From Octopus vulgaris (lineage: Eukaryota): a DNA stretch of 64,000 bases. Positions 4,726-63,063 of this stretch are shown here, one piece after another. The notes under the pieces are model-generated. The model was not told where the DNA came from and ran no database searches. It worked only from the letters and a program-made list of their open reading frames with translations. The stretch's first letter is position 1, and each line of letters begins with the position of its first letter. The position numbers and the translations under genes are program-made. The DNA lies in assembly GCA_951406725.2 (NCBI GenBank), contig OX597822.1:69750001-69814000 (forward strand), in the 5' to 3' direction.

Positions 4726-5107
4726 TACATTATTTACATTTTACGGATATTTGTCGTCATCTTGTTAGTTGTTAACACAACGTTTCGGCTGATATACCCT
4801 CCAGCCTTCATCAGGTGTCTTGGAGAAATTTCGAACTAGGGTTCTATTTCCTAAGGTATTTTTCGATGTTATTATTATTATTCCAGGTCACTGCCTGGAA
4901 TTGAACTCGGAATCTTGGGGTTAATAGCCCACGCTCTTAATCACTATGCTATATGCCCGCCCTTGGGTATATGGCATAGTGGATAAGACACCTGATGAAG
5001 GCTGGAGAGTATATCAGCTGAAACGGTGTGTTAACAACAAGATGAGGACAAATATCTGTCAAATGTAAATAATGTACATAATTCCTCATCTCTTAAATAT
5101 AGAACTG
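4726..5107. mobile_element. Fold-back Penelope-like non-autonomous element with a tRNA-like segment and a hammerhead motif
   Basis: Inverted arms at ~4726-4821 and 4985-5076, plus a ~30-nt tail. Imperfect TSD tttactaaaacttatt (4710-4725) / tttactaaagctatt (5110-5124). tRNA-like A and B boxes on the minus strand at ~4882-4958. Confidence 0.7.
4774..4819 (-). ncRNA. Minimal type I hammerhead ribozyme
   Basis: GACAC-CUGAUGA-A-GGCUG(gagggtatat)CAGCC-GAAA-CG-UU-GUGUU, with palindromic stem III AACGUU. A mutated copy lies on + at 4987-5032 (GAAACGGT). Confidence 0.8.
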
Positions 5108-5511
5108 TATTTACTAAAGCTATTGTGTTGTGATTCTTGGTAATGTAAGTACCCTTACTTTAATTGCCAAACTACCAACAGATTTCTATCCATTCCAATG
5201 ATCAGCAGTAATAAAAACACCCAATTTCAAAAACATATTTCATCCAATGATATGCAATTACCCTAATTTTGAAAACTCACCCACCCATTAAAATAAATGT
5301 AAAACAAGAAACTTTTAAGGACCAAAACCTTAACTTAGATTTTACAGGATTAAGCAGACAAAAGTGACACAGTACCAATTCCACTTGCCCTCTTATAATT
5401 TCTAATAAAAGAAATGCTCACAGAAATATCTCCTTCGGTACAATGATTAACACAAGTTACTATTATCATCAACATTAAGATTTTTATTAATTGGTGAGAA
5501 AATATATTTAC

Positions 5512-5636
5512 CTCCACGTCTCTCCATCATGGAATACAACACAATCAAAAACAGGACCACAGTCATTGTGTTTTTTGTCTAAATTGTTTAAAATCTCAAT
5601 CTGGTTAGTCAAGTCTTCACGGACATTTAACTCATC
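5512..5636 (-). CDS. TPP2: TPP2 exon 4 (DELNVREDLTNQIEILNNLDKKHNDCGPVFDCVVFHDGETWR)
   Basis: Not in the ORF track; translated by hand. ttttag acceptor and AG|gtaaat donor; 125 nt, phase 0/2. TPP2 motif GPV.DC.V.HDGE.WR. Confidence 0.94.
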
Positions 5637-5779
5637 CTAAAATGAATTTTAAAGATAAAATAGAATAACAAACCAATTTTCACAATTAGAATACTCACAA
5701 GCACTTAGCTTTCTGGTACAAAAATAATATATATAACACTAGACATGACAATAGCAATACTGCCTTTACATTTTAAATT

Positions 5780-6213
5780 CAGCTCAATACCAGTTGCTTG
5801 ACCTTCACCAGTCAAGCATGTCCCTTAGTGACTGACAATATGCGCATCTCTGATCACAAGCAGGAGCATTATAGCCACATGTTGAGAGGAATTCTTCAGG
5901 GTTTGAATAATTCTTCTCCGGAAACATGGGTGGTTTATTCACCATCCTTAAACAATCCTTATTCAGGGACCTTTTGAGCAGGATGGGCTACTCAACCTGA
6001 AGAAAATTCTAACTGTGCCTCACCTACAAGGTGATGTGCTGTTTATTTTGATATGAGATCATCATGTCGCATACATATGGTTGTGATGCATGTGCCTGGT
6101 GTACTCTTGTCAGATGGGTGGTCATGATGGGAATATTGGGCTTCATATATGTGTACTCCACTGTCATTTTGATGTCATGCATTGCTCTCTCACTCAATAA
6201 TAATAATAACAAT
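5780..6213 (+). repeat. Interspersed repeat ending in (AAT)n; second copy at 7192-7950
   Basis: Near-identical ~430-nt sequence recurs at ~7495-7950. Both end in ctctc(t)cactcaataataat. Probably the 3' region of, or a partner to, an R4/Dong-type element (inference). Confidence 0.7.
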
Positions 6214-6217
6214 AATG

Positions 6218-6890
6218 GCACGATAACATGGCTAAATTCATTCACTGGAGGCTATGTGAAAAGTTCAGCCTGGACAGAACATGGAAATGGTACGAACATG
6301 AAACAGAAGGAATTACCGAGAACAAGGAATATAAGATATTGTGGGATTTTATCATCCAGTGTGACTCCATAGTCGATGCTCAGATATTGTTGTGGTAGAT
6401 AAAGGATAAAAGGAAACCATGATTAGAGCAGATTGAGTGACCATGTATAGGTTCCCTTGTTGGCTTGTGGCTAGTGAATAATACCTGGGGATGCACACAC
6501 AAGAGACAAAGAGCGAGAAAAAATTATAAAGTACAGACTATTAAAAGACGAAATTGCAAGAATGTGGACTATGGGGTGAGTGTCTGTCATTCATGTAATT
6601 GTAGGGGCACTCAGAGCACAAACAACCAAGTTCAAGAAATATATCAGAGAAATCGGAATTTGCATGAGAGCAGAGCAAGCCCAAATAATTGCTTTGCTGG
6701 GGACAGCTGAGATTTTGATATTGGTACTTGAATGTTGAATATCTCCCACAATAATTAACAACCAAGCATCAAAGCTTAAAATGGGCAGAAGAGACCCTCT
6801 GACAGCAGGCTGCTGCTCACTCTCTCAGAATCTACCAGAGCAAACAAGACCGAGTGCTCTGAGAAATAAAACAACAATAATAATAATAAT
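6218..6890 (+). mobile_element. Degenerate R4/Dong-clade non-LTR retrotransposon 3' end (restriction-like endonuclease) in (AAT)n
   Basis: Hand translation with frameshifts: HDNMAKFIHWRLCEKF..WYEHETEGITENKEYKILWDFIIQCD..DIVVVDK..EKIIKYRLLKDEIARMW..VIVGAL..ALLGTA. Flanked by AAT repeats. Confidence 0.8.
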
Positions 6891-7115
6891 AATAACAATA
6901 TTCCTTTCTACTAAAGGCACAAGGCCTGGATTTTTGTGGGGAGGGGGAAAATTGATCACATTGACCCCAGTACTTGACTAGCACTTGATTTATCCATCCC
7001 AAAAAGATGAAAGGCAAAGTCAAACTTGGCAGAATTTGAACTCAGAAGATAGCAATGGGCGAAATACTGCTCAGCATGTTGCCCGGCATGCTAATGAATC
7101 TGCCAGCTCACTGCC

Positions 7116-7149
<34 letters not shown>

Positions 7150-7153
7150 TAAC

Positions 7154-7188
<35 letters not shown>

Positions 7189-7316
7189 TAAATGCCCTGA
7201 TGCAGTACCAGGCAGTGGCTCTCATGGTTTCTGATCTTAACTGATTGGAAGTGTTATTATGTACATTGTTTTGTCTTGGTATAAAAGATAGGCTACAGCA
7301 AATATTCTGCTCAATA

Positions 7317-7492
7317 ACTATTTCTTTACTGCCCACAAGGGGCTACACACAGAGGGGACAAACAAGGACAGACAAACGGATTAAGTCGATTACATCGACC
7401 CCAGTGCATAACTAGTACTTAATTTATCGACCCCAAAAGGATGAAAAGCAAAGTCGACCTCGGCGGAAATTGAACTCAGAACGTAACGGGAA
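7317..7492 (-). mobile_element. 5'-truncated family-B SINE nested in the (AAT)n-tailed repeat
   Basis: 11-bp TSD tctgctcaata at 7306-7316 and 7493-7503. Matches the copy at 60232-60464. Confidence 0.8.
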
Positions 7493-8212
7493 TCTGCTCA
7501 ATACCATAGATTTGTTTGTCAGTTGTTTGACCGTAACCTGTTGACCATGTCTCTTAGTGGCTGACGATATGTGCATCTCTGATCACGAGTAGAAGTAGTG
7601 GGGGAGCATCATAGCCATGTATTGAAAGGAATTCTTGGAGGTTTGGATAATTCACCTTTGGAAACATGGGAGTTTCGTTCAACATCCTTAAACATTCCTT
7701 ATTCAGAGACCTTTTGAGCGGGATGGATTACTCAACAAGAAAATTCTAACTGTGCCCCACCTGCAAGGTCATGCGCTGTTTATCTTGTTATGAGATCACC
7801 ATGTCGCGCACATGTGGTTGTGATGCATGTGCCTGGTGTACCCTTATCAGACGGGTAGTCATGATGGGTAACTGAGCTTCGTATCTTTTGCCACAGTGTC
7901 ACTTTGATGGCATGCACTGCTCTCTAACTCAATAATAATAATAATAATAGTAATCCTTTCTACTAGAAGCACAAGGCCTCAAATCTGGGGGAAGGGATTA
8001 AGTCAATTACACTGACCCAGTGCATAACTGGTACTTACTTAATCGACCCCGAAAGGATGAAAGGCAGTCAACCTTGGCAGAATTTGAACTCAGAGCGTGA
8101 AGATGGAAGAAATATCACAAAGCCTTTTGGCCAGTGTGCTAACAATTCTGCCAGCTCACTGCCTTCATAACAATAATAACAATAACAATAATAATAATAA
8201 TAATAATAATAA

Positions 8213-8690
8213 TAAAGACTTCAGACAAAAATCATGCCTCCTCATTGATATGACTGTCCCAATTGATATAAACATATCTGTCAAGACCTACCAAAAACTG
8301 AGGAAGTATAAAGATCTTGAAATAGAAATTGGTAAAATGTGGAACTTGAAGACTAAAACAATACCTGTTGTCATAGGTGCCCAGGGAATGATAGCAAAAG
8401 GGGCTGATTGCTACCTAGCTCAGATACCAGGAAACCCCAAAATGGCAGAAATTCAAAAGATAGTGCTCATGGGAACTGCTCATATCCTACGCAAAATACT
8501 TTCTATGTAATCTCAAGTTTTAAAACAAGCATAATTTTCTTATGGTATCTTTAACATTCACTAGTACAACACTAAGTACAAAACCAAATATATGGCACCC
8601 TAGGCATAACACCAACATGAACTTCCAACTTGTTGTCTCTTGAGGTCTCTGGGTGAGACTTGGAGCCAACTTGTAAAGCAAAAGTCAAAC
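8213..8690 (+). mobile_element. R4/Dong-clade retrotransposon 3' fragment (REL endonuclease C-terminus plus 3'UTR) in (AAT)n
   Basis: KSCLLIDMTVPIDINISVKTYQKLRKYKDLEIEIGKMWNLKTKTIPVVIGAQG..IQKIVLMGTAHILRKILSM*. AAT runs on both sides. Confidence 0.85.
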
Positions 8691-8966: not shown

Positions 8967-11821
8967 CTGAAACACAAAGAAAAAAAAAAAAATTTTAAGA
9001 TATAATTCTTTTCTTTTTTTTATTTTGTTTACCATTGTTTATAATGGATACATCAATCAGTGACAAAAATCAAAGAAATTAAAGGCAACCAAAAATGATA
9101 CAGAAAGATTTATTGGACACCACTCTTGGAATTAATTAGTTAAGGTATTTGGGAACAAACAATATACTTTGAGGGCACAGACACGGCTGTATGGTTAGGT
9201 GCAAGGCATGGTTGAATAGTTGAGAAGTCCACTTTGTTCTGAGTTCATTCCCACTGCGTATCTTCTACTATAGCCCCAGGCCAACCAATGCCTTGTCAAT
9301 GAAGTTGATAGACAGAACTTATACAGAAGCCTGTCATGAGGAAGTGAGAGAGAGGGAGGAAGTGTGTGTTTTGTTTTGTTTTGTTTTTTACATCAGTGTT
9401 TACTTCTTCAAACGTTACAATATTCAGAGGATGCTATTGTTGGTACTTCCCTTCTCAATAGCTTCTCACTCACTTTGTGCCTTCAAAGCCATGTGGAATA
9501 AGAAAACCTTTATTTGAAAGACAAGGGTCAACATTGGAAAGGGCATCCAGCTGCAAAACAATGCCTCAATAACATATTCATCTAACCCATGCTAGCATGG
9601 AAAAAGGGCAAGAGAATGAATGAATGACTATGATGTGATGTGATGCATCTAGTGAAGTTAGTGTTTGCAAACCTCTTGCTTTTGATGACCAGCTGATATC
9701 TGAGAATAGGTAGTAGCCTAGTCTTCCAATTTCCCCAGCCAGTGCACAGTCTCTCTTTTACCAACACTCAGGCAAAACCTCCCCATGGCTGCACATGTTA
9801 AATAAGAGCCTTGAAACCTCAGTTTCACTTCGTGTGAAATCTCAAAGCAGCAGTGAGCCCCAATGGTATGCAAGTCAATCTGAGTGAATATGTGCTGATA
9901 TTTATCAATCACTGCCAATAAGTCCAGGAAGATAAAAGCCATGAGAGCACTCACTGAGAGAACAGCAACTGTGGAAATTTTGGGTAGTTTCTAAAAGACT
10001 GGATTTCTGGCAGCCTCTTGTAACAGCAATGAGGTACCCGTTGTCATCTTGGGTCAGGGCCTACCACTTTAGTGATAAAGGGAAAAGCTGCAATCCTATT
10101 CCCACCACCATGCTACTATAAAGCTTTATTGCACAGGTATCTTCTTCTGCAATGTAGATCACGGATCTCTCACAAGTCTGAGAGTGATGAAAAGTCTGAA
10201 AATGGGAACAAGTTTAAATATACAAAAAGCCTCCAATCAGAACTGTACACATCAGTGGGCAGGGCAGTGACCAGTGACAGATGGGATTAAGTGGAAGCAG
10301 CCTCTGACATATCTCTGAGTGACTAAGCTACCCTATCCAGGGACCACAGTATTCATGTTAAATGGGGAAGGCCTAAAAATTAGCCTCTCAGTTCAATTCC
10401 TGGACAGGAAACAACCATGCCTGCTAGGAAAGGCAAGTTTTCCTGTTCAGGAATAGTGGTTATAAAACTACAAATATTATACTACTCAGGCTTATCATAT
10501 GGAATATACCAACATTGCTTGATGCTGGTAACTCAACAAGTTTTCCTGGGTGTTGAACAGCTCCAACAGTCAGAGATCTAAGGAGCTACAGTACAGAAAT
10601 TGCTGCACTCTATGAAATCAGGTTACTTGGATAGGATTCTCTTGAAGAGGTTGATGAGAGAAGAGCAAACATCACCATGGCATTATCTTTACTGTGGAGG
10701 AAAAGGCGCCATTTAAACTGACTGATACATTGACTGGCATTAATGGGCAGCAATGTAACTTCATGTTTTCCTTGCAAAGAGCCATTGTCATGTTACCAAG
10801 TAGCTAAGTACCAATTTTACCATTTGATAGTCAGAACAAAGACCTTTTCTATCAGAGATGAGATCAGGCAGTAACAAAAATATCACAAGACTGTCATCCA
10901 AATGAGTGATTTTAATGTAAGAATAGGGAGTAGATAGAAACCATGACATCGGGAAAAATAACAGCAATAGCATAAAACCTCTTTTCTACGAGTAGATCAG
11001 GACATAAACATAGATCCTCCAAAACACTGGCATCTAACTACCTCATGATCCAGCAAGTAGACCTGAAGGGTATTCTAATCAGCCATGCATTGAGAAAAGA
11101 TGAGTGTTAGCTGGATCATCACAGAATATTGATTTCAAATTTTAGCACAAGGCCAGCAATTTCGGTGGAGAGGATAAGTCAATTACATCGAACCCAGAAT
11201 TCAACTGGTTTTATAGACGCTGAAAGGCAAAGTCAACCTCGGTGGTTTTTTAACTGAAAACATAAAGGCAGACAAAATGCCACTAAGCTTTTCACAAAGC
11301 ATGCTCACAATTCTGCCAGCTCACTGCTGGATTGTTATATAATATTGAAATCAACTACTACAACTTTAAGAATTTTGATAACTGTAAGAATTTCTATCAC
11401 TCTCTAGCTGCCAAACTGGTAACTTCAGAAACTGATATGGATGATAAAAACTCAAGAACTTCTGATACATATAGGAAGGCATAACATGAATAATTTCTAT
11501 AAGCCAATACAGACTCTTTGCAACCTGAGAATTGCTCCATGGCACCAAGCAAGTCATCAGACAACACTTCTCTACTGAAAGACCCAGTTTACTGGAATAA
11601 AATACTGGGAGAAAACCTTCACAGCTAGTTTTTATTGTCATTTTGCCAGTATACTTGTAGTTTATGTACAATTTTGAAGAGCATGGCTTTGAATTAAATG
11701 CGTTATTAACAAATATAGCTGTCTATGAACGATATTACATTGATGAGAGAGAAAGAGACAGAGAAATATGAGAGAGAGATAGAGAGAGATAAATAAAATA
11801 GATATATAATAATAATAATAA

Positions 11822-12226
11822 TATGAGGGAATATTATTCCACATTTACAGGGAAAAATTCAATTTAGAAATACTAAATCAAATTTCACTAAATATAATAT
11901 ATATACATAAATTAGAAAAAACCCACCTTTTATCAATTCAATAATGAAAAATTAAATTATACCATCTAGAAAAATTACATCTTATAGAAAGATTAAATAA
12001 AAGACAAAACATATTTTACTATTATCATTTCTTAAATATAGCCATGAAACACGTGTTATTATTCTACCAAATATATACGTTTTATTTATTATTTTGCACA
12101 TTACTTAATCATTGTTATATGTTTTATCTTATATTTAATCTTTCTATAAGATGTAATTTTTCTAGATGGTATAATTTAATTTTTCATTATTGAACTGATA
12201 AAAGGCGGGGGTTTTTTCTAATTTAT
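11822..12226. mobile_element. Fold-back Penelope-like element with a partial hammerhead
   Basis: Inverted arms at 11907-12014 and 12117-12226, plus a one-sided extension at 11822-11906. The spacer holds GAAACACGTGTTA (12046-12058) but no CUGANGA half. Confidence 0.6.
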
Positions 12227-12865
12227 ATATAAAATAGATATATAAATACATATGCACACACATCAATACATGTCTGGATATGATGATTAAAGGGAAAAGC
12301 CCTTTCATGTATATAGAATGTATAACTTTAACTGGATTTGAACCTTCTCCTCTATGCTCTACTTGTGGTAAAAATAAAAATGTGCTACCTTCACATCAGG
12401 TGGAAGGCAAAATGAAAGTAAAATGACATGCCAGCTGAATGACACAAAAACGCAGTACAATATACCATTCGATTTCTAAGAATCACACATCCCCTATGAA
12501 AATTGTAAAACATTATCATATTTGAAGGTCAAGGTCAAATATGACAAATATACACACAATGTTATTTTAGTAGCATATATTCGTAAATACAAGGAGCAGC
12601 TTTTCTATCAAATGTGTTAAATTGAAGACACAAATGCAGTCACATTTAATGTTTATTTAATGTCTATTAATATGATTTTCCAACAAATTATATCTCTCCT
12701 ACCCCTCTCCCTCAACACCACCACACATCCCACCATTTTCATTTACTGTGCCTGCCCCCACCTCTCTCTCTCTCTCTTCATCCACCCCTGAAATCTACCT
12801 GATAGCACATCAGCTGTTTACAGTATCATTGTCTCTATTCTGCTGCCCCACACCAGACATCAACA

Positions 12866-12903: not shown

Positions 12904-13739
12904 CTTCTGGCACCCCTGCCCTACTTATTCCTACCCACCCTGTACCTCGAAGGTTCTTTTCTAATAGTACATCACCAATTTCTAGCTCTCCACCACCATC
13001 CTCTCTTCTAAAAACACAAGTTGTCTTGTAGCTCCTCTTCAACAAGTATGGTGGGAGGGAAAGGGCTGGAGCCCTCCCCCCCCCCCCCGCCTATACTTTA
13101 CCCCTCTCTAATCCTTATTCTCCTAGCATAAAGTTCCCCTTCCCCTCTCATGGCTCATAGTCTTGCACGTTGCATGGCAACCTCAGTAGTGCTAGTGGCA
13201 TGAAATAAAAAAAAAAAGACATTCCATACACTCTGTGAAGTGGTTGGCATAAGGAAGGGCATCCAGCTGTAGAAACCATGCCAAAGCAGACACAGGAGCA
13301 GCATGATACAGTCCTTAGACCAGCGCTCTGCAACACATATTCTGTTCAAAATTCGGTGACACACCTGAACTAGAAATATAACTAAAAGTATAGGGAAAAA
13401 AATTATATTCAGGTTACACTGTGGTGCACCTAGCATCATCTCACGACACACCAGTTGCAGAGCATTGCCTAAGACTTATGAGATCTTTCCAAAACCATCC
13501 AACCCATGCCAGTATGGAACATGGACATAAATAATGATCATTATAATATATTTCCTTTTTAGTCCTTTAGTTTAAGATAATAACCATTCCAAGGTCTATT
13601 ACTATCAGATCATTAAGAATGAAATGTCCGATTTTCTTAAGCACTAAGTTTGACAGCCATTAACTCCAATGTTTCTTCCTGGCAATTCTTTGTTTTAAAA
13701 CATTGAAGAGTTACATCATCACTTTTCGAAATGCAACTT

Positions 13740-14610
13740 TCAGATAGGGACCATCAGACTCTTATGCAAATTGTTAGAAAGGATCACAAAAGTACAGCTC
13801 CCAAAATTACTGCAGAGCTTAATGACCACCTCGAGAACCCAGTTTCTACAAAAACTGTTTGCTAAGAGCTGCACAAAGCTGGATTTCACAGCAATCAGAA
13901 AACAACTACTTTCAAAAATAAACGTTGCAAAGCATTTAGAGTGGAGTAAAAACCTACAGAATCGGTCCCTAGAGCAGTGGAAGAATGTTATTTTGTTGGA
14001 CGAGTCATCTGTTAGCTTATTTCCAACCACTGGCTGCGAGTATACGTGTGGAGACAGCCAAAAGAAGCATTTGACCCAGTCTGCCTTCTTCCAAATGTTA
14101 AACAAGAAGGGGGATCTGTGATGATCTGGGGGGGGGGCTATTTCTTGGAAAACCCTTCATGGCAGAATTTATAGTCAAGACATTTTATCTGATCAAATTC
14201 ATCCTATGGTTGCGGAACTGTTTCCAGAGGGAAACGCAATCTTTCAGGATGATAATGCATCAATTATTCACACAGCTAAAGTTGTTACTGAACGGCACAA
14301 GGAGCATTCTAGTAAGGTGAACGTCCTATCTGGCCACCACAGTCCCCAGATCTCAATATTATTGAACATTTATGGTGCATTTTAGAAAAACCAGAAAGGA
14401 GTCGATATCCTCCACTATCATCACTACAAGAACTGGGGACTGTTTTAGCTGAAGAATGAACAAAAATTCCTTTGGAAACAATTCAAACTTTGTACCAGGT
14501 CATACATCATAGGATTCAAGCTGTAATTAGTACCAAAGGCGGTCCTACCCCTTATTAAAATAAATTTGCTTGAAATTTTAAGGTGTTTCCATTATTTTGT
14601 CCAACCCCTG
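13740..14610 (+). mobile_element. Tc1 (DD34E-type) DNA transposon remnant, 5' truncated
   Basis: Frameshifted transposase: WKNVILLDES, GSVMIWG, IFQDDNA, WPPQSPDLNIIEHLW, RIQAVISTKGGPTPY*. Ends in TIR-like ttttgtccaacccctg followed by TA. Confidence 0.88.
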
Positions 14611-14710: not shown

Positions 14711-15024
14711 AACAAAGGGTAAAATTAATTGATTAAGAAGTAATCAGTAATTTCACCAAGTAGAATTCGGCATGAAAAAGACCAAATATGGATTTATTTT
14801 AGTTATTTTTCCTCTTTGCCTGCGTAGATTGTTTTAAAGTATTTTGGTTTTTCTGGGAGTCCCTTTTAAAGTAGAAGAAATAGCTAAGGTTTTTTGACTG
14901 CTATTTCTAAACTTTGGTATGTGGTGAAGCAAATCTTTGCCGAACCCTAATTATAAAGTATATATATATATATATATAACCCATGCTAGCATGGAAGGCG
15001 GACGTTAAATGAAGATGATGAAGA

Positions 15025-15071
<47 letters not shown>

Positions 15072-15758
15072 TATATGTATACACACATATATATATGCAT
15101 GCAAATATTTATATATATATATCTCATCATCATCGTTTAACGTCCGTTCTCCATGCTAGCATGGGTTGGACAATATATATACACATATATATATGCATGC
15201 AAATATTTATATATATATATATATATACACACACACATATATGTATACATATATTAGTGCATTATATATACACACACACACACACACATACAGACATGTA
15301 TACATATATATACTAATAACTATAAACTAGTTTGTACACAACTAGACTCAACAACATTCTTTAGTATGCTCTCAATTTTTCATAAGGATAAACTATGTAT
15401 ATCTGAATTTGTAATCTGCTATTTCTTTCAAGTCTTCTGTAATAATAATAATTGTTTGTTATATACTTCTTGCATTGAAGAGAACAGTGATATGTAACTC
15501 ATTTAATTTAATCAAATTAATTTTAATTATTCTACCATGTATTTAAAAGTTAATATCGCTGTTTGAAATGATCATATGCATGTATTAAAATTCTTTCAAA
15601 TTTTAACGTCTTCTCTTCTCTTTTTTTAATATATTTGTTGAGTTCTTATGGGATACCTTTCCATAAATTCTTATAACACACCAAATATATGTGTATATAT
15701 ATGTAAATTTATATTTGTGTGCATATATATATATATATGTAAATTTACATTTGTGTGC

Positions 15759-16164: not shown

Positions 16165-19060
16165 TGTCAGCCAGAAGCTGAGGCCATACTGGTGCAACAC
16201 CTTTACTGCATCTGGGGACTTTTCCAGTATTGCTTCTGGTGACGTAGCAAGTTAGACATTGCTGCTCTTCTTTGTGCCTCCTGCCGCAATGTGACTTCCT
16301 CATGTTTTTTGAAGACTTCCATGTCTATACCTAGCAGATCCCTGATGTTCTGTGGTAGGGCATTAAAAAGTTGTGGTCCCTTGCACCCCAAGCTATTACA
16401 GTATTGGGTTCGTATCCTCGATGGAGAAGATGGGACCTTTGGTACTGTGCCATGCTGTTCAGTTCAGAGATTGTAGATTTCAATTCTGAAATTTGGAGCC
16501 AGACCCACCATTATTTTCAACACGTATAGCACTGTATATCTCTCACGTTTCCTCTCCAGGGAGTAGAGTCACAGTTCCCTCAATCTCTTCCGGTAGCTCC
16601 TGTGTTTTACTGAGTCTATCATCTTTGTGAAGTGACATTGGATCGCTTCTAGTTCCGCAATTAGTTTTTTACAATCTGTGGGGACCACAGTTGGGAGCAG
16701 TAGTCCAGACAACTGAGGACAAAGGTTCTCTAAAGCAGAAGCTTTGTGTCTTTGTTCCTGGTCTTAAAGGATCTAAGGATCCAACCTGCCACCCGCCTGC
16801 ATACTGTTGCCATCTGAGCAATGTGCACATGGAAAATTGCATCACTGCTCATGTGGATTCCCAGGTCATGCACTGACTAAATCTCTGATTACACTGCCTG
16901 CTGGTCCCATGTACTTCACCTGTAGTTTGTTTGTGGGCTGATAGCAGAGTGCTTGAAATTTTGCACCTTTGAACAGCATATTATCCTCATCAGCCCATTT
17001 ATATGTTGTGTCCGGGTCATTCTGCAGTCTTAGGATGTCAGTAGGATCCTTGACCACCTGTGATACTTTTGTATCATTGGTGTAGCTGGTGAGTGTGAGG
17101 GCATGTCCAAAAGAGCAACCACAAACAGTAGTGGACCCAGTACTGTCCCCCGGGGGACTCCACTGAGGATTGGTGCCACTTCAGAGAGAGCATCATTTGC
17201 TGTGACAGCCTGACTTCTGCCCCTTAAGAAATCATGCAGCCACATACCAAGGTCACGAAATTTGTGACATATCACCCCATGCCTGACTTTGTCAAACACC
17301 TTTGGCAAAGTTAAGATACATAACATCCACATTTGAATGGTTGAGCTGTAGTTTTAGTACCTAGTCGAAGTGTTGTAGTAGCTGTGTTAGGCAGCTCTGT
17401 CCAGGACAGAAATCATGTTGCACGTCTGTAAGCAAGTCATTTTCCTCTAGGAACATGGTCAGTCTTTTTCTGACAATGTGAGGTCAGAGAAATAGGACTG
17501 TAGTTTATAGCATCTACTCTGCTTCCTCCTTTGTGGACAGGGCAGGTTATTCCTTCTTTTAATATTTGAGGAAATGTACTGCATTCAAAGCAACTGGAAA
17601 TGCATTTGCAGTGGTTTTGCAAGAGCTCTCTTGCATGTTTTTAACAGAATTGCTGTGAGTCCATCAAGGCCTGTTGTAGAGTCTGGGTTTATCTCATCAA
17701 TGGCTGACAATACATCCTCCTATGTAAAGTTAATGTAATTGATAGTCACCTTTTTCTCTTGTAGGTAAGAGGTATTGAACTCATCAGGTCTGCTTATTTT
17801 CGGGCTTTCTAGTGGGGAGGTGAAAACACTTTGGAATTGTTTATTGAGTGCTTTACTTATCCTCCTGGGGTCTGCAGTCAGTGAGCCCTTTTCATTAAAC
17901 AGTGACCCTATCCTGTATCACACTGAGGCAGACTCTTCTGTGAACTTGTAGAAAGCTTTAGGCTTTCTTTTTATATTTTCCACTGCCCTGGCTTCTCTGT
18001 TTACCCTTTCTTTTTCATGGGAGAGCCTGATTTTATTCTGAGTCTCTAAGAGTGCCATTTTGAGGCAGGGCTTTTTGTTGTCATTAGGCTCCTTATTTAA
18101 GCAATTCGAGATCTTTATCCTCCATCTCATTAGGTTTCTTCTGTCTCGGGGAATAATGTTCTTATGCGTGGTGGCTTTCTTCTCTGGGACAAACATAATG
18201 CATATGGCTCGCATTATAGACATGAATTCATTGAATTTCATGTCAGGGTCTTGCATGGACAGACTTTTAAATCAGTTTTGTTGGAGTATCACTTTGTTGT
18301 TGAACTCCCAGTCAGCCTTGTAGAAGTTCAGGTTGGCTAGTGCTTGGGATCCAGCAGTGTTGTATGATTCTTTAATTAGCTTTGGACCATATTTTGACAC
18401 TTCTATCATGTTACGGTCTGAGTGGGTAGACGGTGATATGTTTATGCTGTGGATAAGGTCTATATTGTCTGTGAAGCAGAGATCCAGGATGTTGTTATTT
18501 CTGGTTGGGGAAAGTATGGTCTGCTCCATGAACATCATTTTCATGAGATCTACTAGAGATTCTACCTGCTTGCATTCCTTTCATGTCAGTCCTGAGGTTA
18601 TGACACCTTTGGGCCATCTAATGTTGGGGAAGTTGAAGTCACCCATCAGAAGTACCTTAAGGCAGTGGTCTAGGTTTGTAAGTACTTCTTTTATCTTTGT
18701 AAGACATTCCTCAAACTTACCATCATAGTTTGAGGCATCGGGTGGGCAGTATAATGTGCATATTACCACGTTAAGTTGCTTTAGATGTACTATGAGTGTG
18801 TCGCAGACTGCATTCGAATGTGACAGCAGTGTCAATGCTGTAACATCATCATGCATGTACATTGCAACTCCACCATGGCTTCTCTCTTTTCTGTCTGTAT
18901 AGAACACAGTATACATTGGTACATGTATCTCTACAGACAGATGAGTCTCTCTGAGTGCAATGCATATAGCTTGATTGCATGCAGACAGTTCTCCCAGGTA
19001 TGCAATTTTGCTCTTGCTGTTGTTTTGCAAACGGCCTCTGTTGTTCATCAGTAGAATTTG
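16165..19060 (-). mobile_element. Degenerate CR1/L2-like LINE (APE endonuclease plus reverse transcriptase)
   Basis: Endonuclease motifs ETHL, SHGGVAMY, LMGDFNFPNIRW, PTRNNNILDLCFT, SDRNMI. RT motifs YSPISLTSH, FDKVRHG, SGVPRGTVLGPLLF, WADEDNMLF. Many frameshifts. Confidence 0.9.
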
Positions 19061-51120: not shown

Positions 51121-51373
51121 TATATATATATATATATACTACAAAATTAGAAAATGGAGAAACATATTTAAATCAATCAAACATCAACCATCAGATGATA
51201 CCCAATCAATACTTTATTACACCATTACATAACAGTACATGCATTATACAAAATATATTATAAATATAATTAGACAAAGAAATAGAAATATAAAATATAA
51301 AATATAATATGTAATTATATTATATATATGTAATTATATATATATTATATTATATATATGTAATTATATTATA

Positions 51374-52693: not shown

Positions 52694-52741
<48 letters not shown>

Positions 52742-53400
52742 CAAGGTATAAATGATGATCCTTTCATATTTTTCCCTTATTGGAGTAAATTCGGCTTACA
52801 GCTGTTTCTAGTCATCATTACAGGTTCGCTATCAATAGGTTTACTCAGTTGGTCTATTGATCTGCTGAGAAAAGTTGAATGACCTTAAAAATTAATGCTA
52901 CTTTTCATCAGAGCCATTTCTAGTTATAACAATGCAGAACACTGAAGGAATGGTACAGACATGGAGGAGAGGAAGAAAAGAGGCAAGTGGAAGAGTGATG
53001 AAGAGGAGAGTGAAAGGGAAGTGATGATTTGGAAGGGAAGGACAAAGGAGAAGAGAAGGAAAGAAAAGAAGAGGGGAAGGAATAGAAAGAATAGAGGAGA
53101 GGAGGCATTCCATAGAAGAAGCTAATGGAATTCATAAAATTGCTTTTCCTGTGTTATCTCTTTTTCTTATATGTACACACACACACACACACATACTAGT
53201 GAGTGGACAAATGGAAAAGAAAGATGATTCTGAACACATTTATTATGAGTTACACATATTAATTTTTAAAACAACATGCTTCCACCCCACCCTTAATCAT
53301 ATTGTTTTAAATGATGATGATGATGATCATGATGATAGGTGTCAGGAAGACACTCCGCAAGAAATGAAAACCATTGATCTGCTGGATAATAATAATAATG

Positions 53401-55312: not shown

Positions 55313-56719
55313 CACCCTAATGGGGGCCTTAACTCCCAAATTTTAGTCATCTCTTTTATGATCCAAAAATAGGTCAAAAGTACTGAATGGATCTTTATGA
55401 AATTTCGAAATTATATTCTATGCATAAGGACCATAACCCCCATGACAATTCATATATTTTTGCTGTTGATGAAATTTTAACCATAGATATTAGACACAAA
55501 TGAAGTAATATTTATAAAATTTCATCTTCTTACAAGTTACAAAGACCCCTCCATGGGGACTTAACACCCACAATTTTGTCATTTTATCTAAGCAAAAATG
55601 AATACAGTTGTGCTCTTGGAAGCTGTAGGGTTACCCGAGCATAAAAGATGAGCATTATTTGTAATTCAATGGTACAACAGTGTAAAGTTTGCTTTGACAT
55701 ACACTTAGATTGTGATTTCTGCAATGTGGTGCATAATTTGTCAAGTAAATAAGAGGCATCTTTGCCTCCACTGATTTAGTTGCAAAGTGTTGAGTAAAGT
55801 TATTTGATTGCAGACCTCCTTTCAGTCTTTTTATTATCACTGGGTCACACATAGTCCCCAGGTGGTAACATTGATTTCAAGGCCTTCCCAGATGAGTGAC
55901 TGGTTATTCAAAGACATTTATAGATTGTAAATTTATTCTCTCCAGATGATTTTTAAAATTATATTTATGTGTATCTTTCAAATGCCTTCACTTTGGCATG
56001 CTGAGATCGAAATTACTCTGCAGTTGATAAACTACAGCAGTCAATTTACCGGCTAGAGAACATTTTTTAAATTTCTACTCTTATTTAATTTTAAATTAAA
56101 AAATGTTCTCATCCCCCACTTGTTCATTATAGTCCTGCAGGCAATAACAGACCCACCTATGCCAGTGCCGCCCAACTATGGTGGTGCCGCCTAACTGGCT
56201 CCCGTGCCGGTGGCATGTAAAAAGCGTGGTCAATGCTAGAGTCACCTGACTGGCTCTCATGCTGGTGGTACATAAAAAGCACCCACTACACTCTCGAAGT
56301 GGTTGAGCATCCAGGAAGAGCATCCAGCTGTAGAAACCTTGCCAGATCAGATTGGAGCCAGGTACAGGCTCTTGGCTTGCCAGTCCTCAGTCAAACCATC
56401 CAACCCATGCCAGCATGGAAAACGGACGTGAACCTATAGAATAAAAAGAGAAAGGGCGCTTTGCTCTCATGATTTATTCTCTGAGATTACCGTGTTTTTT
56501 TTCTTTTTCTTAGGTTTTTCTTTCCCCGGATAACCATAGTCAGTGATTTATTCTTTTCCCCCTTTTTTGAATTTAAGTTGTTAAAACGATTCCTTGTTTT
56601 CTCCTTGTGTAAACTTTCCAAAACGTTTTCGATCCCTATTGATCAGTTTTGAAAAAAATTCTGCATTGTACTGTTCCCTCGGCCTTGCGTGGCTTAATAA
56701 AGAAATCTATCTGGTATTG

Positions 56720-56950
56720 TGTTGTGTCTGGGGAGAGTCATTTTCTTTTTGTGCCAAAATTTCCATTTATTTCTTATTTTCTTCAAGACTATTGAAAAGG
56801 TTGCAAGACGCAACGAAAATTTTAGGAAAATAAAAATAAGAAATAAGTGGAAATTTTACCGGTGAGTGTATAAAATTATAAGGTACAAAAAGAAAACGAC
56901 TCTCCCCAGACACAACAGAATATGCTTCAACACACGAACTCACATAAAGA
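56720..56950. mobile_element. Fold-back Penelope-like element with a U3-A8 variant hammerhead motif
   Basis: Arms at 56720-56780 and 56832-56917 (with an internal indel), plus a tail. Motif at 56789-56825 (+): CUA-UUGAAAA-G-GUUGC(aagac)GCAAC-GAAA-AU-UU-UAG. Confidence 0.6.
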
Positions 56951-58581
56951 ATCTTGCAAACCAAATCCCAAAACGAAATATCTGGTATTGGCTTGATGTT
57001 AATACGGTGTAAGAGAAATCACTCAGAAAGCGAGTTTAAGAATGAAAAACATATGATTAAAGGGAGATAAATGTGACGTTGCGAGTTGGAAAATACGTAA
57101 CGTTAATTTAATGCTTACATTCAACCTTATCGCTCTTTCATGTGAGGGATCAGGGTGTCTTTTATCTTTTATATGTGTTTCTGTCATTGGACTGTGGCCA
57201 TGCTGGAGCACCGCCTTTAAAGTTTTTAATAAAACAAATTGACCCTGATACCTACTTTTTTAAAGTTTGGTAGTCATTCTATCAGTGTCTTTTGCTGAGT
57301 CACTTGTCAATTGTCGTGGTCCCGGTTTTGCACACGCGAATTCGCGCGCGCGCGCGCGCCAGACGTAGGTACTCGATACTCGAGATCCTACGAGGTGACT
57401 TGCGCATGCGCAGTGCAGAATTCGCGCGTGCGCGTTAACCCCCCCCCCCTAAAAAAAAAGGTGTTGGATTTCACTAAAAATATATGTGTGTGTGTGTGTG
57501 TGTGTGTATATATAACATTTTCAATTTTACACAAAAAAATTACATAGTCGCTTTCCTCGCGGATTTACAGAGAAATGAATTAATTACTATTTTACAGAAT
57601 AAAATTAATGAATTAATTATATAAATTAAATAATTCTTGAAAATTAATTAATATTAATAATATTTTTTGAACAAAGTAAATAATTTATAAAACTTGGTTA
57701 ATAATTTTTTTTACACAAACGCGAACGTATATAATTTGTGAAACTTTTTTTTTTTTACAGACGTATATAATTTGGTAAACTTAATGAATTAATTTCTTCT
57801 CATCATCATCATCGTTTAACGTCCGTTCTCCATGCCAGCATGGGTTGGACGGTTCGACCGGGGATCTGGGAAGCCAGAAGGCTGCACCAGACTCCAGTCT
57901 TATCTGGCAATGTTTCTACAGCTGGATGCCCTTCCTAACGCCAACCACTCCGAGAGTGTAGTGGGTGCTTTTTACATGCCACCCGCACAGGTGCCAGGCG
58001 AGGCTGGCAACGGCCACGGTCGGATTGGTGCCAGTCGAGGCGGCTCTGGCATCGGCCACGATTCGGATAGTGCTTTTTACGTACCACCAGTCCAGGGGTC
58101 CTGGCATTTGCCGGGTGCCACACTTGCCCCAACATGTCTTCGCAAGCAAAGGGGGTTGGCATGGGTGCCTGTCGTGGGATGAGGTTCGATATCAACTTCG
58201 CTTGCCTCAACAGGTCTTTGTGTATAAATGTATAAATTTTTCGCACTAAATTCTTTCCGTAGAATTTATAAAAAAACGCGCAAAATTATTCCGTAGACTT
58301 TATCAAATTAAAAAACGCAAAATTAATATATTTTTGAAATTGCAAATTATTTAGAATATAAAACAAATTAAGTTAAATTTTAAAAATAAATGTCATATAC
58401 TTATACTCTGTAAGGTGCTGTGTTCACACTTCAATTTACTATTTTCTAGAAATGTTGCTTTTCTAATTGAAACAATTTTTCTCAATCTCCATTTAAAAGT
58501 CCATAATGCCTCTTGAGCCATATCAAAATGAACAACTTTGAATTACCCGGTGGTGGTGGTGGTGGTGGTGGTGTGAGGTTC

Positions 58582-58941
58582 TAATTTTTTTTCTGATCTC
58601 TCTTTGCCCCCCCCCCCCCTAGATGGAGGTGTGGTGGGGAGACAGATGAAAGATGTTTCATTCTCTACTATATATGTATATATATATCTATATCTATATA
58701 TATATATATATATTTCTTAAACCTACACGATATAGTCTATAAATTTGGGATGTTTTTGAAAGATAATATATTTTGTCATCAGAATATATATACTTTCTCA
58801 CACTACAATTAAGATATATTTATTTTAAATCGTTCATCTTTTCCCGCGACAACAAAAATTGGGCGCGAAAATTTTTCTAAATATTAGCTGAATGAACAAC
58901 TGAGATAAAGAGGGGGCAAAGAGAGATCAGAAAAAAAATTA
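58582..58941. mobile_element. MITE-like element with a 30-bp inverted repeat
   Basis: taattttttttctgatctctctttgccccc / gggggcaaagagagatcagaaaaaaaatta. Superfamily not recognised. Confidence 0.6.
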
Positions 58942-60231
58942 AATGTGACCAAGGAAGACCATCAACTGACAATCGTCCAAGCAAAATGCCAACAATGCCC
59001 ATGCATGAGGTTATTGCATTAGCAGTCAGCTTCCCCTGGGCTTGCGTCCCCTGCTTTCATGCTTGTCACAGAACCTTCCCACACGACCAGGCATCAGATA
59101 GTCACCTCGTCAGCAATTACAAAACCTAAAATTTTAGGTCTAGTAATGCTTGCGCAACACCCCACAGACCCTCTCCAAGCTACTGATTTGATTCAGACAG
59201 ACACAAGCCAGGGCAAGATATCCAGTGCCAATATGGGTCAGAAACTTAGGAATGTAGGAGCACCATAATCTCAAGTGCAAAAGCTCCCCAAAATGTTCCA
59301 TGCCATTCTTTGAATATTTGGTTTTATATCAGAGTTACTGCCTTCTGGAAACATGCTTTAGCAAAAGCTAAGTGGTGCCTCACACCCAATGATCTTCCAG
59401 CATGTTGGACACAAACCTGTCACAAGGACACACACACACACCATTGGCTTTCACACATTCCATTCCACTTTCAATGCATCCCACAATATCATTTAAACAT
59501 TTCACATTTTCTTTTCCACTTTCTATATGTTCCATTCTAAATTCCACATATCAACTTCCACAATTCATTCCTGACATTCTACTCAGTTCGTACTGCATTG
59601 CACATTTTCTCATCTTCACTTCATTTCATTCCATCTTGCACACATATTCCATTCTTCATTCCATTCCACATTCAATGCATTCTTAACATTCCATTCCACT
59701 TCCCATTTTTAAGTTCAATGCATTTCATTATACTTTACACATTCCATTTCACATATCTTTTTCATTCTGCATTCCACATTAAACACATTCTATTTATTCT
59801 ATATAATACTCTCCACATTCCATTGCACACATTCTACAAACTCTGTTTTACATTCAAAGCATACCTTCTACATTGCATTCCAAATTCCACACAATTTTCT
59901 CATTTCCTACCACATTCCATTCAACATATAATCTTTCATAATGCTTTTCACATTCCACACATTTTACTAATTCTATACTATATTCCACTTATTGTAAAGA
60001 CACATGTCTTGGTAGTTAGAGTGTTGGACTCATAATCATGAGATTGTGGTTTCAATTCTAGGACTAAGCGATGCATTGTGTTCTTGAACAAAACACTTCA
60101 TTTTACATTGTTCCAATCCCCTCAGCTGATAAAAATAAATAATCCTGCAACAGACCAGCGTCCCATTGAAGGAGGAATATAAACACCAGAAAAACCAGGA
60201 AACTGACCCTATGCTCCTTATAGAGTAATGT

Positions 60232-60464
60232 TTTATTTTTTATTGCCCACAAGGGGCTAAACATAGAGGGGACAAACAAGGACAGACAAAGGGATTAAGT
60301 CGATTACATCGACCCCCAGTGCGTAACTGGTACTTAATTTATCGACCCCGAAAGGATGAAAGGCAAAGTCGACCTCAGCGGAATTTGAACTCAGAACGTA
60401 AAGACAGACGAAATACTGCTAAGCATTTCAGCCAGGGTGCTAAAGTGTCTACCAGCTCACCGCC
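60232..60464 (-). mobile_element. Full-length family-B tRNA-derived SINE
   Basis: Head ggcggtgagctgg..ttctgagttcaaattcc. Central gcctttcatcctttcggggtcgataaattaagtaccag resembles the Meta/MESC SINE domain (from memory). 14-bp TSD ttat(a/g)gagtaatgt at 60218-60231 and 60465-60478. Related copies near 6900-7116, 7955-8165 and 11130-11327. Confidence 0.85.
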
Positions 60465-61302
60465 TTATGGAGTAATGTGAACTAACCACTAACCATATTC
60501 CGCTCATTCCGTTCAACATTTCGCACTTTCTCATTTCATTCCTCACATTCTTTTCCAAAATCTATATATTCCCTATTACATTCCATATATCACCTTTGAG
60601 GATTGGTGACAGGAAAGGTATCCAACTGTAGAAAATCTACTTCAACAAAATTCCATTGAACTCATGGAAAAGTGGATGTTAAAACAATTTAGTTACTATT
60701 TTACTTGTTTCAGTCATGTGGCCATGCTGGAGCACTGCCTTTAGTTGAGCAAATCGACCACAGGACTTATTCTTTGTAAGTCTAGTAATTATTCTATTGG
60801 TCTCTTTTCCCAAACTGCTAAGTTATGGGGACGTAAACACACCAGCATTGGTTGTCAAGCAATGTTGGGTGGGGACAAACACAGACACACAAACACACAT
60901 ATATATAACAGGCTTCTTTCAGTTTCCATCAACCAAATCCACTCACAAGGCTTTGGTTGGCCTGAGGCTATAATAGAAGACACTTGCCCAAGGTGCCACG
61001 CAGTGGGACTGAACCCAGAACCATGTGGTTCGTAAGCAAGCTACTTACCACATAGCCACTCCTATTTTGAGGAGGATCAGCAACCCAGCATGAATTTTGC
61101 AGACCTTTCAGACTTAATGACAGTTTTACTTGGCCTGTCTTCTTTTATAATTCCATAGCAGCCTATGATGCATTATAGAAAAGTATAAATCTACATCAAT
61201 ATTTTGTTTTATCAACACTATTAGAATGAAAGAAGTTGGTCACTTCCAACAGGATCTGCCTGACAGTAAGTGTATACATATCTATAAAAGTACTCATGTC
61301 TG

Positions 61303-61357
<55 letters not shown>

Positions 61358-61564
61358 TATTCTTTTATTTGTTTCAGTCATTTGACTGCGGCCATGCTAG
61401 AGCACCACCTTTAGTCGAGCAAATCGACCCCAGGGCTTATTTTTTGTAAGCCTAGTACTTATTCTATCGGTCTCCCTTGCCGAACCACTAAGTGACGGGG
61501 ACGTAAACACACCAGCATCGGTTGTCAAGTGATGTTGGGGGCACAAACACAGACACACAAACAT

Positions 61565-61593
<29 letters not shown>

Positions 61594-61595
<2 letters not shown>

Positions 61596-62069
61596 CAAAA
61601 TGAGAAAATGGAGAAATATATCTAAATCAATCATCAACCATCAGATAATACCCAATCAATACTTTATTAAACCATTACACAATAGCAATGATATTATACA
61701 TTAATATAGTACAAATATAACAAGACATAGAAATAGAAATAGATTTCTATTTCTATTTCTATGTCTTGTTATATTTGTACTATATTAATGTATAATATCA
61801 TTGCTATTGTGTAATGGTTTAATAAAGTATTGATTGGGTATTATCTGATGGTTGATGATTGATTTAGATATATTTCTCCATTTTCTCATTTTGTATTATT
61901 AATTTATGGTAATAATTTTTACCTTTGCCCACAAAATACAGTAGATGAATTAATTGCATCGCAATTTTTAACATTTATGTATTAGCTTTGTTGGGTACTT
62001 ATCTAGCAGTATATTGGATATATGTTATCCCATGGAGGGTTGAATTTACAACCCCTATCTCATTTTATA
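61594..62069. mobile_element. Short fold-back copy of the 23332-24913 Penelope-like family, inside a family-A SINE
   Basis: 150-nt arms at 61594-61743 and 61746-61895; tail at 61896-62069. Same arm/tail breakpoint (tacaaaa) as the long copy. Confidence 0.8.
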
Positions 62070-62087
62070 TATATATATATATATATA

Positions 62088-62190
62088 TCTCTATATATAA
62101 ACGGCAGTTTGTCTGTGCGTGTTTCTGTGTGTAAAATTCTTTATAGTTATTTCCCTTACAAACCTGAGCAACGCCGGGCGATACTGCTAG
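62088..62190 (+). mobile_element. Complete ~103-bp non-autonomous mini-Helitron
   Basis: A|TCTCTATATATAAA 5' end, subterminal hairpin cctgagcaacgccggg, CTAG|T 3' end. A Helitron-like 5' end also occurs at ~54042-54125. Confidence 0.7.
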
Positions 62191-62455
62191 TATATATATA
62201 TATATATATATATATATACGACGAGCTTCTTTCAGTTTCCGTCTACCAAATCAACTCACAAGGCTTTGGTCAGCCTGAGGCTATAGTAGAAGACACTTGC
62301 CCAAGGTGCCATGCAATGGGACTGAACCCAGAACCATGTGGTTGGTAAGCAAGCTACTTACCACACAGCCACTCCTGCAGAAAAACTTAAAAACAGAGAA
62401 GCAGACTCTAAGAAGTAGAGCAGTCTGTATTTATTACGGGTGAAGGCCTGTTTAT

Positions 62456-62512
62456 AAGGTTACCCTGGGTTTCTCACCATAAAGAGTATCTTTATGGTGT
62501 ATCATCAGACTT
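62456..62512 (-). ncRNA. Type I hammerhead ribozyme in fold-back element 62381-62717
   Basis: aagu-CUGAUGA-ua-CACCAUAAAGA(uac)UCUUUAUGGUG-a-GAAA-CCCAGGG-UA|accuu. 11-bp stem II; weak stem I. Confidence 0.7.
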
Positions 62513-62716
62513 GTTGACCTATGGCCTCTTTAACGTATGGAGACGGAAACGAACTGGATATAAAGCTGATGACCACCAGAAGAGGGAGATAACCCCATTC
62601 TCTCTATCAGGTTGGTTTCCTCCTCCATATTTTAAAGAGGCCATAGGCCAACAAGCCTTAGGGTCTGGTTGGCAAGAAATCCAGAGTAATCCTATAAACA
62701 GGCCTTCACCAGTAAT

Positions 62717-62749
<33 letters not shown>

Positions 62750-62835
62750 GATATATATACATATACATATGGAAGTCATCTAAAAGTCCATAAGTCTAGA
62801 AAAAGATGCATTAGTATATCTGTCAATAGAGTAGG

Positions 62836-63063
62836 TATATTAATCCGAAATGTACAGTATTATATATCCATCATGGCTGATCTTGCCAATTGGTTTCATG
62901 CTATGAAATAAGGCACCATATTTTATTCCATATCGGCTACCTCTGATGAGCATAGGATTATATAATTGGATTGTTACCTAACACTCTGTTGTACCACTAG
63001 TGCAAAACCAGTTGGTAAGATCAGCTATGATGGATATATAATACTGTACATTTGGGATAATAT
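62836..63063. mobile_element. Fold-back Penelope-like element with a decayed hammerhead
   Basis: Arms at ~62836-62896 and 63004-63063. On +: CTGATGA(62943-62949)-gcatag..ctagtgc-AAAA-ccagttgg-TA. The other arm keeps GAAA-ccaattgg. Confidence 0.6.

Follow-up and report, generated by a model that had tools for sequence, protein, structure and literature searches.

Fold-Back Repeats in a 64-kb Segment of the Octopus vulgaris Genome as Probable Truncated Insertion Ends of Several Penelope-Like Families

Introduction

Insertions of Penelope-like elements (PLEs) are 5′-truncated, with a one-ended tail and a target site duplication (TSD), and an inverted truncated copy is often joined to them head to head across a palindromic junction (PMC3846280; PMC8557442; PMC8969392). 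Minimal PLE hammerhead ribozymes, which include a U3-A8 variant, are mostly found solo or as opposite-strand pairs 100–700 bp apart (PMC4209133, 2014), and solo copies are the usual product of a truncated PLE insertion (PMC4209133; PMC8969392). Natural U3-A8 was also described elsewhere (PMC3088659). A preference for (TA)n targets is documented and the elements concerned include Octopus Naiad and Hydra elements (PMC8557442 and its supplement), while 31 recently active PLE families with 336 insertions are reported for O. vulgaris (PMC13282606). Animal retrozymes, a further class of hammerhead-bearing elements, are tandem by definition (bioRxiv 10.64898/2026.07.22.740005; PMC7229834). The present study deals with 13 fold-back or fragment elements found in 64,000 nucleotides of O. 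vulgaris DNA (assembly GCA_951406725.2, contig OX597822.1, positions 69,750,001 to 69,814,000; hereafter the window), of which they occupy 8.2%, about one per 5 kb. We consider it highly probable that they are real multi-copy repeats, most likely the 5′-truncated insertion ends of several Penelope-like families, whose mirror arm was likely built anew at each insertion. The design that they share is the documented PLE insertion layout and not a new convergence.

Architecture of the Fold-Back Elements

An earlier note, made from the letters of this DNA, had listed nine palindromic elements and three fragments. Inverted arms align with each other in all nine palindromes (named as in Table 1), with identities over aligned columns of 90/97 (E1), 145/167 (E2), 715/719 (E3), 129/131 (E4), 112/121 (E5), 62/66 (E6), 159/162 (E7), 98/122 (E8) and 59/66 (E9). 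The head-to-head inverted layout, reminiscent of pseudo-long terminal repeats, is common to the nine. The 12 sites are real, but the list was incomplete: E15, with a core at 15475, had been missed, F52 reaches ~52920 and has a whole core, and the apparent loop of E1 is a tRNA-like head plus linker. A one-sided tail of ~20–170 nt, proposed in that note as part of a shared design, is present in eight of the nine palindromes; it is AC-rich in E4, E5 and E6. Hardly any spacer separates the arms of E3, E5 and E7, and the two arms of E1, E2, E4, E6 and E9 are unequal. The hammerhead cores of E3 and those of E5 face outward from the centre, i.e., head to head.

Frequent insertion in (TA)n, also claimed earlier, was recovered: a run of at least four TA units lies no more than 10 nt from 15 of 26 ends, in 11 of 13 elements, while such positions make up 4.7% of the window, an association that is inflated because TA runs partly guided where element ends were drawn. 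Neither E1 nor E6 sits in a TA run. The target of E3 is a (TA)n within a satellite-like array whose orientation is unchanged on both sides. Flanking direct repeats were sought at nine elements. The only firm TSD is that of E2 (21 bp, one mismatch). A 12-bp repeat with one mismatch at E1 (4710–4721 and 5110–5121) is marginal (score 9, with 6.7% of random pairs reaching at least 8), as is the 8-bp repeat at E6 when compared to random pairs. Only TA-run or weak direct-repeat matches flank E4, E5 and F52, and none was detected at E8, E9 and F49.

Families and Copy Number

E3, E7 and F51 form one family (77–89% identity). Their tail-less arms end within ~3 nt of each other and the end of the tailed arm is identical in E3 and E7, while their 5′ ends differ, the arms being ~700, 151 and 185 nt long. 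Common 3′ ends with different centres suggest that the palindrome is likely made at insertion, for which the ends of these three copies provide the best evidence. In both copies of the tail, a short perfect hairpin lies directly ahead of the tail's end (23360–23378 in E3 and 62037–62055 in E7); it is a candidate start or protein-binding signal. A frame of 40 codons that is open in the E3 and E7 tails was rejected as coding since it has eight amino-acid changes. E5 and E6 are weakly alike (E 0.14), and no other match resembling homology was found in cross-family comparisons within the window. The set amounts to some 11 families.

Multiplicity was assessed with contigs of four public runs, bearing four organism labels, aligned at 82% likeness to positions 56400–63400, a segment that covers E6, E7, E8 and E9. 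The values are summed contig depths, not copy numbers. Single-copy contigs have depths of ~68, 48, 8 and 6 in the four runs. In the same order, the bin over E6 reaches 1.3 million, 1.4 million, 156,000 and 266,000, the arm-tail bin of E7 154,000, 276,000, 10,000 and 47,000, the interior of E8 1,900, 2,700, 230 and 270, and the bin over the start of E9 12,700, 13,800, 950 and 1,400. The four elements are clearly multi-copy, being tens to ten-thousands of times deeper than single-copy DNA in all four runs; the earlier note had named a single-copy or assembly fold-back nature as what would speak against its reading. An opposite-strand joint in this contig alignment (56755/56869) is explained by the two arms of E6 and was not counted.

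Hammerhead Cores

A strict hammerhead descriptor gave four hits in the window (E1, E3 twice and E15); 60 shuffles averaged 0.1 hits and never exceeded 1. A relaxed descriptor, suggested as a check in the earlier note, accepted every kind of 3-8 pair, allowed either U or C at position 4 and tolerated additional bases around stem II. Its four settings yielded 5, 6, 10 and 10 hits against shuffle means of 0.05, 0.23, 0.40 and 0.62 (40 shuffles), i.e., 10 against 0.4 at the most productive one. The gain is partly fitted, because the descriptor was written after the motifs had been read by eye. One hit of the fourth setting (4198) lies outside any element. Over all settings, cores were located at eight of the 12 listed sites (E1, E3, E4, E5, E6, E8, F49 and F52) and in E15. 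The NYGANNA-stem II-GAAA-palindrome-UH motif, described earlier as whole, partial or decayed, is decayed in E9, reduced to one half in E2 and, as the note stated, absent from the 51.1 and 61.6 kb copies (F51 and E7). Scanning for GAAA-palindrome-UH halves alone was not specific (8 inside elements, 13 outside).

Four different 3-8 pairs occur: C-G (E1), U-A (E6), G-C (E5) and U-G (E15). E5 and E6 show a compensated stem II pair. Three types can be distinguished. E1, E5 and E6 have an extra base after A9, a stem II of 5–6 bp, a palindrome of 2–4 nt and a UU site. E4, E8, E9 and F49 are Hydra-clade-like by eye. E3, E15 and F52 have a 6-nt palindrome and a stem II region of 83–96 nt. By eye, these types would point to Poseidon-like and Hydra-like sources.

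Eleven motifs were folded, of which six have z below −2.5 and one has −2.47. Both stem I and stem II form in the folds of E3 and E15 (z −3.2, −5.6 and −2.8), and none of E1, E4, F49, F52 and E9 stood out from shuffles. In folds of six whole elements, computed for both strands, the long hairpin engulfed the ribozyme of E1, E5, E8 and E9; only stem II survived in E4, and both stems did in E6. Folding of two copies, which is weak evidence, gave palindrome pairing between molecules in E3, E4, E8, F49 and F52, not in E1, E5 and E6, nor clearly in E15. An exact-pattern scan of metagenome contigs for the E6 motif returned no match. Next to E6, a repeat at 56500–56700 covered by several contigs of the public runs has a possible decayed core near 56655–56615 (−). 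The interior of E8 (62545–62580, +) presents a GAAA half before a CUGAUGA half; by eye, the Naiad_Obim consensus ends with a similar arrangement, which may be due to chance.

Comparison with Known Systems

The elements resemble EN+ (endonuclease-positive) PLE units (Arkhipova et al. 2013, PMC3846280; Craig et al. 2021, PMC8557442; Frangieh et al. 2024, PMC11167929) in their inverted 3′ ends, palindromic junction, one-sided tail, flanking direct repeat or (TA)n target, and 5′ truncation. The type I hammerhead near the 3′ end and the variability of the 5′ truncation and of the TSD or microsatellite target are further points of likeness. They differ in that the published tails are 30–40 nt long, compared to ~20–170 nt here, in that no open reading frame (ORF) remnant is present, and in that many families are packed together, one element per 5 kb.

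The hammerheads of E1, E5 and E6 share with the minimal ones of Cervera and de la Peña (2014; PMC4209133) the extra base after A9, G10.1-C11.1, a stem II of 5–6 bp, a short palindrome and the common UU site. U3-A8 and U3-G8 cores are present among the 56 rows of their figure S3, whereas G3-C8 (E5) and the change of U4 to C (F49) are outside those rows and the 83–96 nt stem II of E3, E15 and F52 is far longer than in any of them. G3-C8 is not in the rows of file S2 of Craig et al. either. We found no paper on G3-C8 in PLEs; Lünse et al. (2016), who treat PLE hammerhead variants, may already report G3-C8 or long-stem variants.

F49 resembles by eye the 3′ ends of the Hydra clade (Craig et al. 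2021, files S2 and S7) in stem I, a 7-nt odd palindrome and a downstream hairpin, laid out as in Hydra-2_Amil and Hydra-2_Ajap. E4, E8 and E9 share, also by eye, a flanked stem II or a stem III of 7–8 nt with this clade, which targets (TA)n and has an Octopus member. None of these elements matches the Hydra-1_Obim end, however, the palindrome of E4 is 4-nt and even, and the clade itself is defined by protein.

Schistosoma Sm-alpha and Sj-alpha and animal non-long-terminal-repeat retrozymes are, like the elements of the window, non-coding and equipped with a type I hammerhead, and Sm-alpha has an RNA polymerase III (Pol III) promoter before its ribozyme, as proposed below for E1 (PMC6765202). 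Those elements are tandem and have canonical hammerheads, whereas E1 is dispersed and inverted, with a minimal hammerhead and a PLE-type tail. No tandem hammerhead units were found in the window.

Proposed Mechanism

In the anole, the PLE protein introduces nicks into both DNA strands at AT-rich sites and extends each of them, and the tail of the insertions is the stretch between two internal RNA start sites, located in an AC-rich loop (PMC11167929). The hammerhead of this element cleaves only with the protein, and a C3G/G8C double mutant partly restores cleavage (PMC11167929). The tails of E4, E5 and E6 are AC-rich like that loop. In the mechanism proposed here, the octopus PLE proteins would bind a structure just downstream of the hammerhead in their own RNA, nick AT-rich or (TA)n DNA and start reverse transcription at either of two fixed RNA sites. 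Copying from the distal site would give the tailed arm, and a copy ending at the proximal site the tail-less one. Both copies would stop early, often near the hammerhead, and be joined head to head at their 5′ ends. In the source RNA the hammerhead would be active either as a dimer or with help of the protein; since it is predicted to be buried in a long hairpin in most inserted palindromes, such palindromes are likely dead ends. E1 would likely come from a tRNA-headed template using the same machinery.

The tailed arm of E4 begins 1 nt past the predicted hammerhead cut, the short arm of E6 3 or 10 nt and F51 ~10 nt past it, which for so few arms is only a hint. The tail-less arm extends further 5′ than the tailed arm in E2 and E4, and in E6 the tailed arm is longer. 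Simple fold-back copying of the tailed complementary DNA (cDNA) is thus insufficient for E2 and E4, unless the centre was deleted later.

Several observations speak against an origin in truncated PLE insertions. All but one of the families occur once in the window, E9 has no visible tail, and the 400 nt upstream of the hammerhead in E3 are non-coding. No PLE coding sequence adjoins any element and there is consequently no named autonomous partner: the Pfam scan, which took the 145 longest of the 307 non-low-complexity frames, matched no GIY-YIG domain and nothing PLE-like, in line with the earlier note, which saw no PLE reverse transcriptase (RT) or GIY-YIG ORF. A missing PLE ORF is expected of truncated copies. 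The Rfam search named as a check in that note went against it, with no hammerhead family match among 136 window rows at E up to 10 nor among six rows for E1 only; the window rows comprised just hairpin and TA-repeat microRNA look-alikes below gathering scores. A whole core is missing in E2, which has the 3′ half only, and no core is found in E7 and F51, and folding of the F49 and F52 motifs is not more stable than that of shuffles (z 1.16 and 0.06). Exact-match search of the supplement of Craig et al. retrieved none of five window motifs and none of five of a further six, the sixth occurring only in unrelated places. Neither empty sites nor insertion polymorphism are visible among the contig rows shown, whose joint tables are swamped by short interspersed elements (SINEs). 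Finally, insertion by the anole PLE in vitro does not need hammerhead cleavage (PMC11167929).

The tRNA-Like Head of E1

The apparent loop of E1 opens with a minus-strand tRNA-like head, continues with a short (AAT)n and ends in a linker that leads to the hammerhead. The first 22 nt of the head recur at the start of the right arm (~4966–4988, +), which then jumps to the hammerhead through a 4-nt microhomology; the UH site of this right-arm hammerhead copy is broken. The Rfam tRNA model aligns to the head over the D, anticodon and T arms with 13.4 bits (E 8; gathering score 29), ARAGORN calls it only at the 70% threshold, and an A/B-box pattern search did not list it. Other SINE-like heads of the window match it weakly (E 0.08–0.45). 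The arm structure together with the tRNA-like alignment suggests that the E1 template began at a tRNA-like 5′ end.

E1 is thus a candidate SINE carried by PLE machinery, known from one copy in the window. A different history also fits, in which the template switched once, from a truncated PLE copy to the RNA of a SINE, with fold-back afterwards. Exact-pattern scans for its hammerhead gave no match in either genome or viral contigs, and two loci found in metagenome contigs (L001 and L002) have flanks unlike E1 and were attributed to chance. A search for longer proteins containing the 40-amino-acid frame across the linker and hammerhead retained one candidate and none at E 0.1. Octopus SINE families were reportedly described by Ohshima and Okada in 1994, and the E1 head may belong to one already named. 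Should E1 represent a family, the partner of this SINE would be a Penelope element, a pairing that we did not find described in the literature beyond the tandem schistosome retroposons and retrozymes.

A bolder proposal combines three elements. In an octopus SINE family of which E1 is one copy, a Pol III head derived from a tRNA would be fused to a Penelope 3′ end that bears a minimal hammerhead, and the partner that pastes it as head-to-head palindromes would be a PLE rather than a long interspersed element (LINE); octopus PLEs would have hammerheads that standard descriptors miss (G3-C8, stem II of 83–96 nt); and the unequal arms of young copies would be two separately primed cDNAs, one of them from ribozyme-cut RNA. 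This combination is tentative, and we rate it a little below an even chance. The SINE reading of E1 and the unusual cores are leads within an otherwise mostly known design.

Alternative Explanations

The lack of an ORF remnant at any site, the long non-coding 5′ part of E3 and the tRNA-like head of E1 would suit dedicated families with their own promoter and a fixed 5′ end, mobilised in trans by PLE proteins, possibly via circular RNA like animal retrozymes. Short non-autonomous Penelope elements exist in butterflies (PMC6685494) and Chlamydomonas (PMC8557442), and retrozymes have been argued to derive from PLEs (bioRxiv 10.64898/2026.07.22.740005). We nevertheless find such families improbable here, as the 5′ ends vary in E3, E7 and F51, the only family seen three times, tandem hammerhead units are absent, and solo 3′ ends are usual for truncated PLE insertion. 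Truncated insertions describe the elements better than fixed non-autonomous units do; E1 is the only one with positive signs of a dedicated non-autonomous element. The earlier note had inferred a non-autonomous, PLE- or retrozyme-like population mobilised in trans. Its link to PLEs and minimal type I hammerheads is borne out by anatomy and published motif tables, but the differing 5′ ends leave non-autonomy and mobilisation in trans unsupported, as 5′-truncated insertions are also produced by autonomous PLEs, of which Octopus has examples. The retrozyme likeness fails for want of tandem units.

Inverted arms and TA-rich flanks are also features of miniature inverted-repeat transposable elements (MITEs) or fold-back DNA transposons in TA sites, whose hammerhead-like motifs would be incidental; the symmetric ends of E9 and the absence of an Rfam hammerhead agree with such an origin. 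It is very unlikely given the one-sided tails of eight of the nine palindromes, the variable centres within one family, the 21-bp flanking repeat at E2, the single-arm copies, and cores that are far above chance and include compensated pairs; symmetric terminal inverted repeats with a fixed short TSD are not the rule here. That the near-perfect palindromes E3, E4 and E7 are assembly or read fold-back artefacts is the least credible explanation. Their arms are 99–100% complementary and no listed contig piece bridges E7, but the flanks show no mirror symmetry, the array has the same orientation on both sides of E3, the E3 arms differ at seven places, and the tail-less ends of three separate copies coincide.

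Truncated PLE insertion being the preferred origin, ~8% of the window corresponds to short PLE ends, which may be classed as MITEs or unknowns by repeat pipelines. The design is already published, so the main result is one of annotation. The copies are also natural records of how PLEs insert, with two fixed 3′ ends and independent 5′ ends that can be counted genome-wide. Such a count could distinguish fold-back priming from priming at nicks on both strands and show whether ribozyme-cut RNA is ever a template.

Genomic Context

The window contains the first seven coding exons of tripeptidyl-peptidase 2 (TPP2), whose top match in a protein search is O. vulgaris (98%). TPP2 introns host E1, E2, E15, E3 and E4, and the remaining elements lie upstream of the start codon. 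The long hairpins within these introns might serve as double-stranded RNA substrates.

Table 1. Coordinates of the fold-back elements, their hammerheads and the TPP2 exons in the window.
Feature	Position	Strand	Description
E1	4722–5109		head-to-head, tRNA-like head, minimal hammerhead, ~28-nt tail on right arm
E1 minimal hammerhead	4779–4814	−	C3-G8, extra A after A9, 5–6 bp stem II, 2-nt palindrome, UU site, 5-bp stem I
E1 tRNA-like head	4881–4958	−	A-box-like and B-box-like motifs; D, anticodon and T arms; then short (AAT)n
E2	11810–12232		head-to-head, tail on left (~11822–11901)
E2 hammerhead	12046–12057	+	3′ half only
E15	15315–15690	+	single-arm element between TA-rich runs
E15 hammerhead	15475–15576	+	U3-G8 core, 83-nt stem II
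E3	23332–24917		700-nt arms, 99% complementary, 172-nt tail on left
E3 hammerheads	23801–23696; 24621–24725	−; +	one per arm, 86–87 nt stem II
E4	28289–28634		99% complementary arms, 27-nt AC-rich tail on right
E4 hammerhead	28451–28417	−	in spacer, 4-nt even palindrome
E5	47431–47751		symmetric palindrome, 57-nt tail on left
E5 hammerheads	47612–47576; 47649–47685	−; +	one per arm, G3-C8 core pair
F49	49174–49335	−	single-arm end; decayed hammerhead 49321–49292, U4 read as C
F51	51136–51320	−	tail-less 5′-truncated single arm, E3/E7 family, no hammerhead
F52	52740–52920	−	single-arm end; whole core 52911–52797, 5-bp stem I, 96-nt stem II region
E6	56709–56943		unequal arms, ~21-nt AC-rich tail on right
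E6 hammerhead	56792–56822	+	U3-A8 core
E7	61594–62069		151-nt perfect arms, 173-nt tail on right, E3 family, truncated downstream of hammerhead
E8	62381–62721		diverged arms, 47-nt tail on left
E8 hammerhead	62508–62461	−	near-complete, 7-nt odd palindrome
E9	62836–63064		unequal arms, no tail seen
E9 decayed hammerhead	~62943–63017	+	by eye, G12 read as A; missed by relaxed scan; other arm keeps GAAA half
TPP2, first seven coding exons	369–40961	−	protein match to Octopus vulgaris
TPP2 exons	40961–40788, 27381–27244, 8975–8766, 5636–5511, 3643–3521, 1274–1206, 527–369	−	85–100% identity per exon

Besides TPP2, the Pfam matches in the window are an apurinic/apyrimidinic endonuclease (APE; 18584–19237) and a weak RVT_1 (17033–17353), which was read as LINE-type and not accepted as a PLE RT. 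LINE-type coding remnants lie at 8088–8510, 16866–19237, 37436–37813 and 45011–46006 and comprise an endonuclease-like C-terminus (by eye), the APE and RT fragments (Pfam) and RTE-like pieces (by eye). Frames at 13699–14156 and 49900–50764 resemble DNA-transposon remnants by eye and have no Pfam match.

E4, E7 and E8 directly abut SINE-like copies (61314–62380 for E7 and E8); the position of E4 and E7 inside the TA-rich tails of such copies is nested targeting of microsatellites. An abundant SINE-like repeat, which does not belong to the PLE set, forms inverted pairs that are 72–80% alike (32966–33290/33777–34209 and 54125–54346/54555–54877). The palindrome beside E15 (14959–15191) is made of two inverted fragments of another SINE-like family flanking a TA run. 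A weak tRNA-like stretch at 36777–36850 (−; Rfam 21.7 bits, E 6.3) is probably a SINE head. The pyrimidine-rich, satellite-like array that hosts E3 has units of ~22 nt and extends over 22336–23331, 24941–25764 and 26491–26971, with an inverted block at 26.5–27.0 kb.

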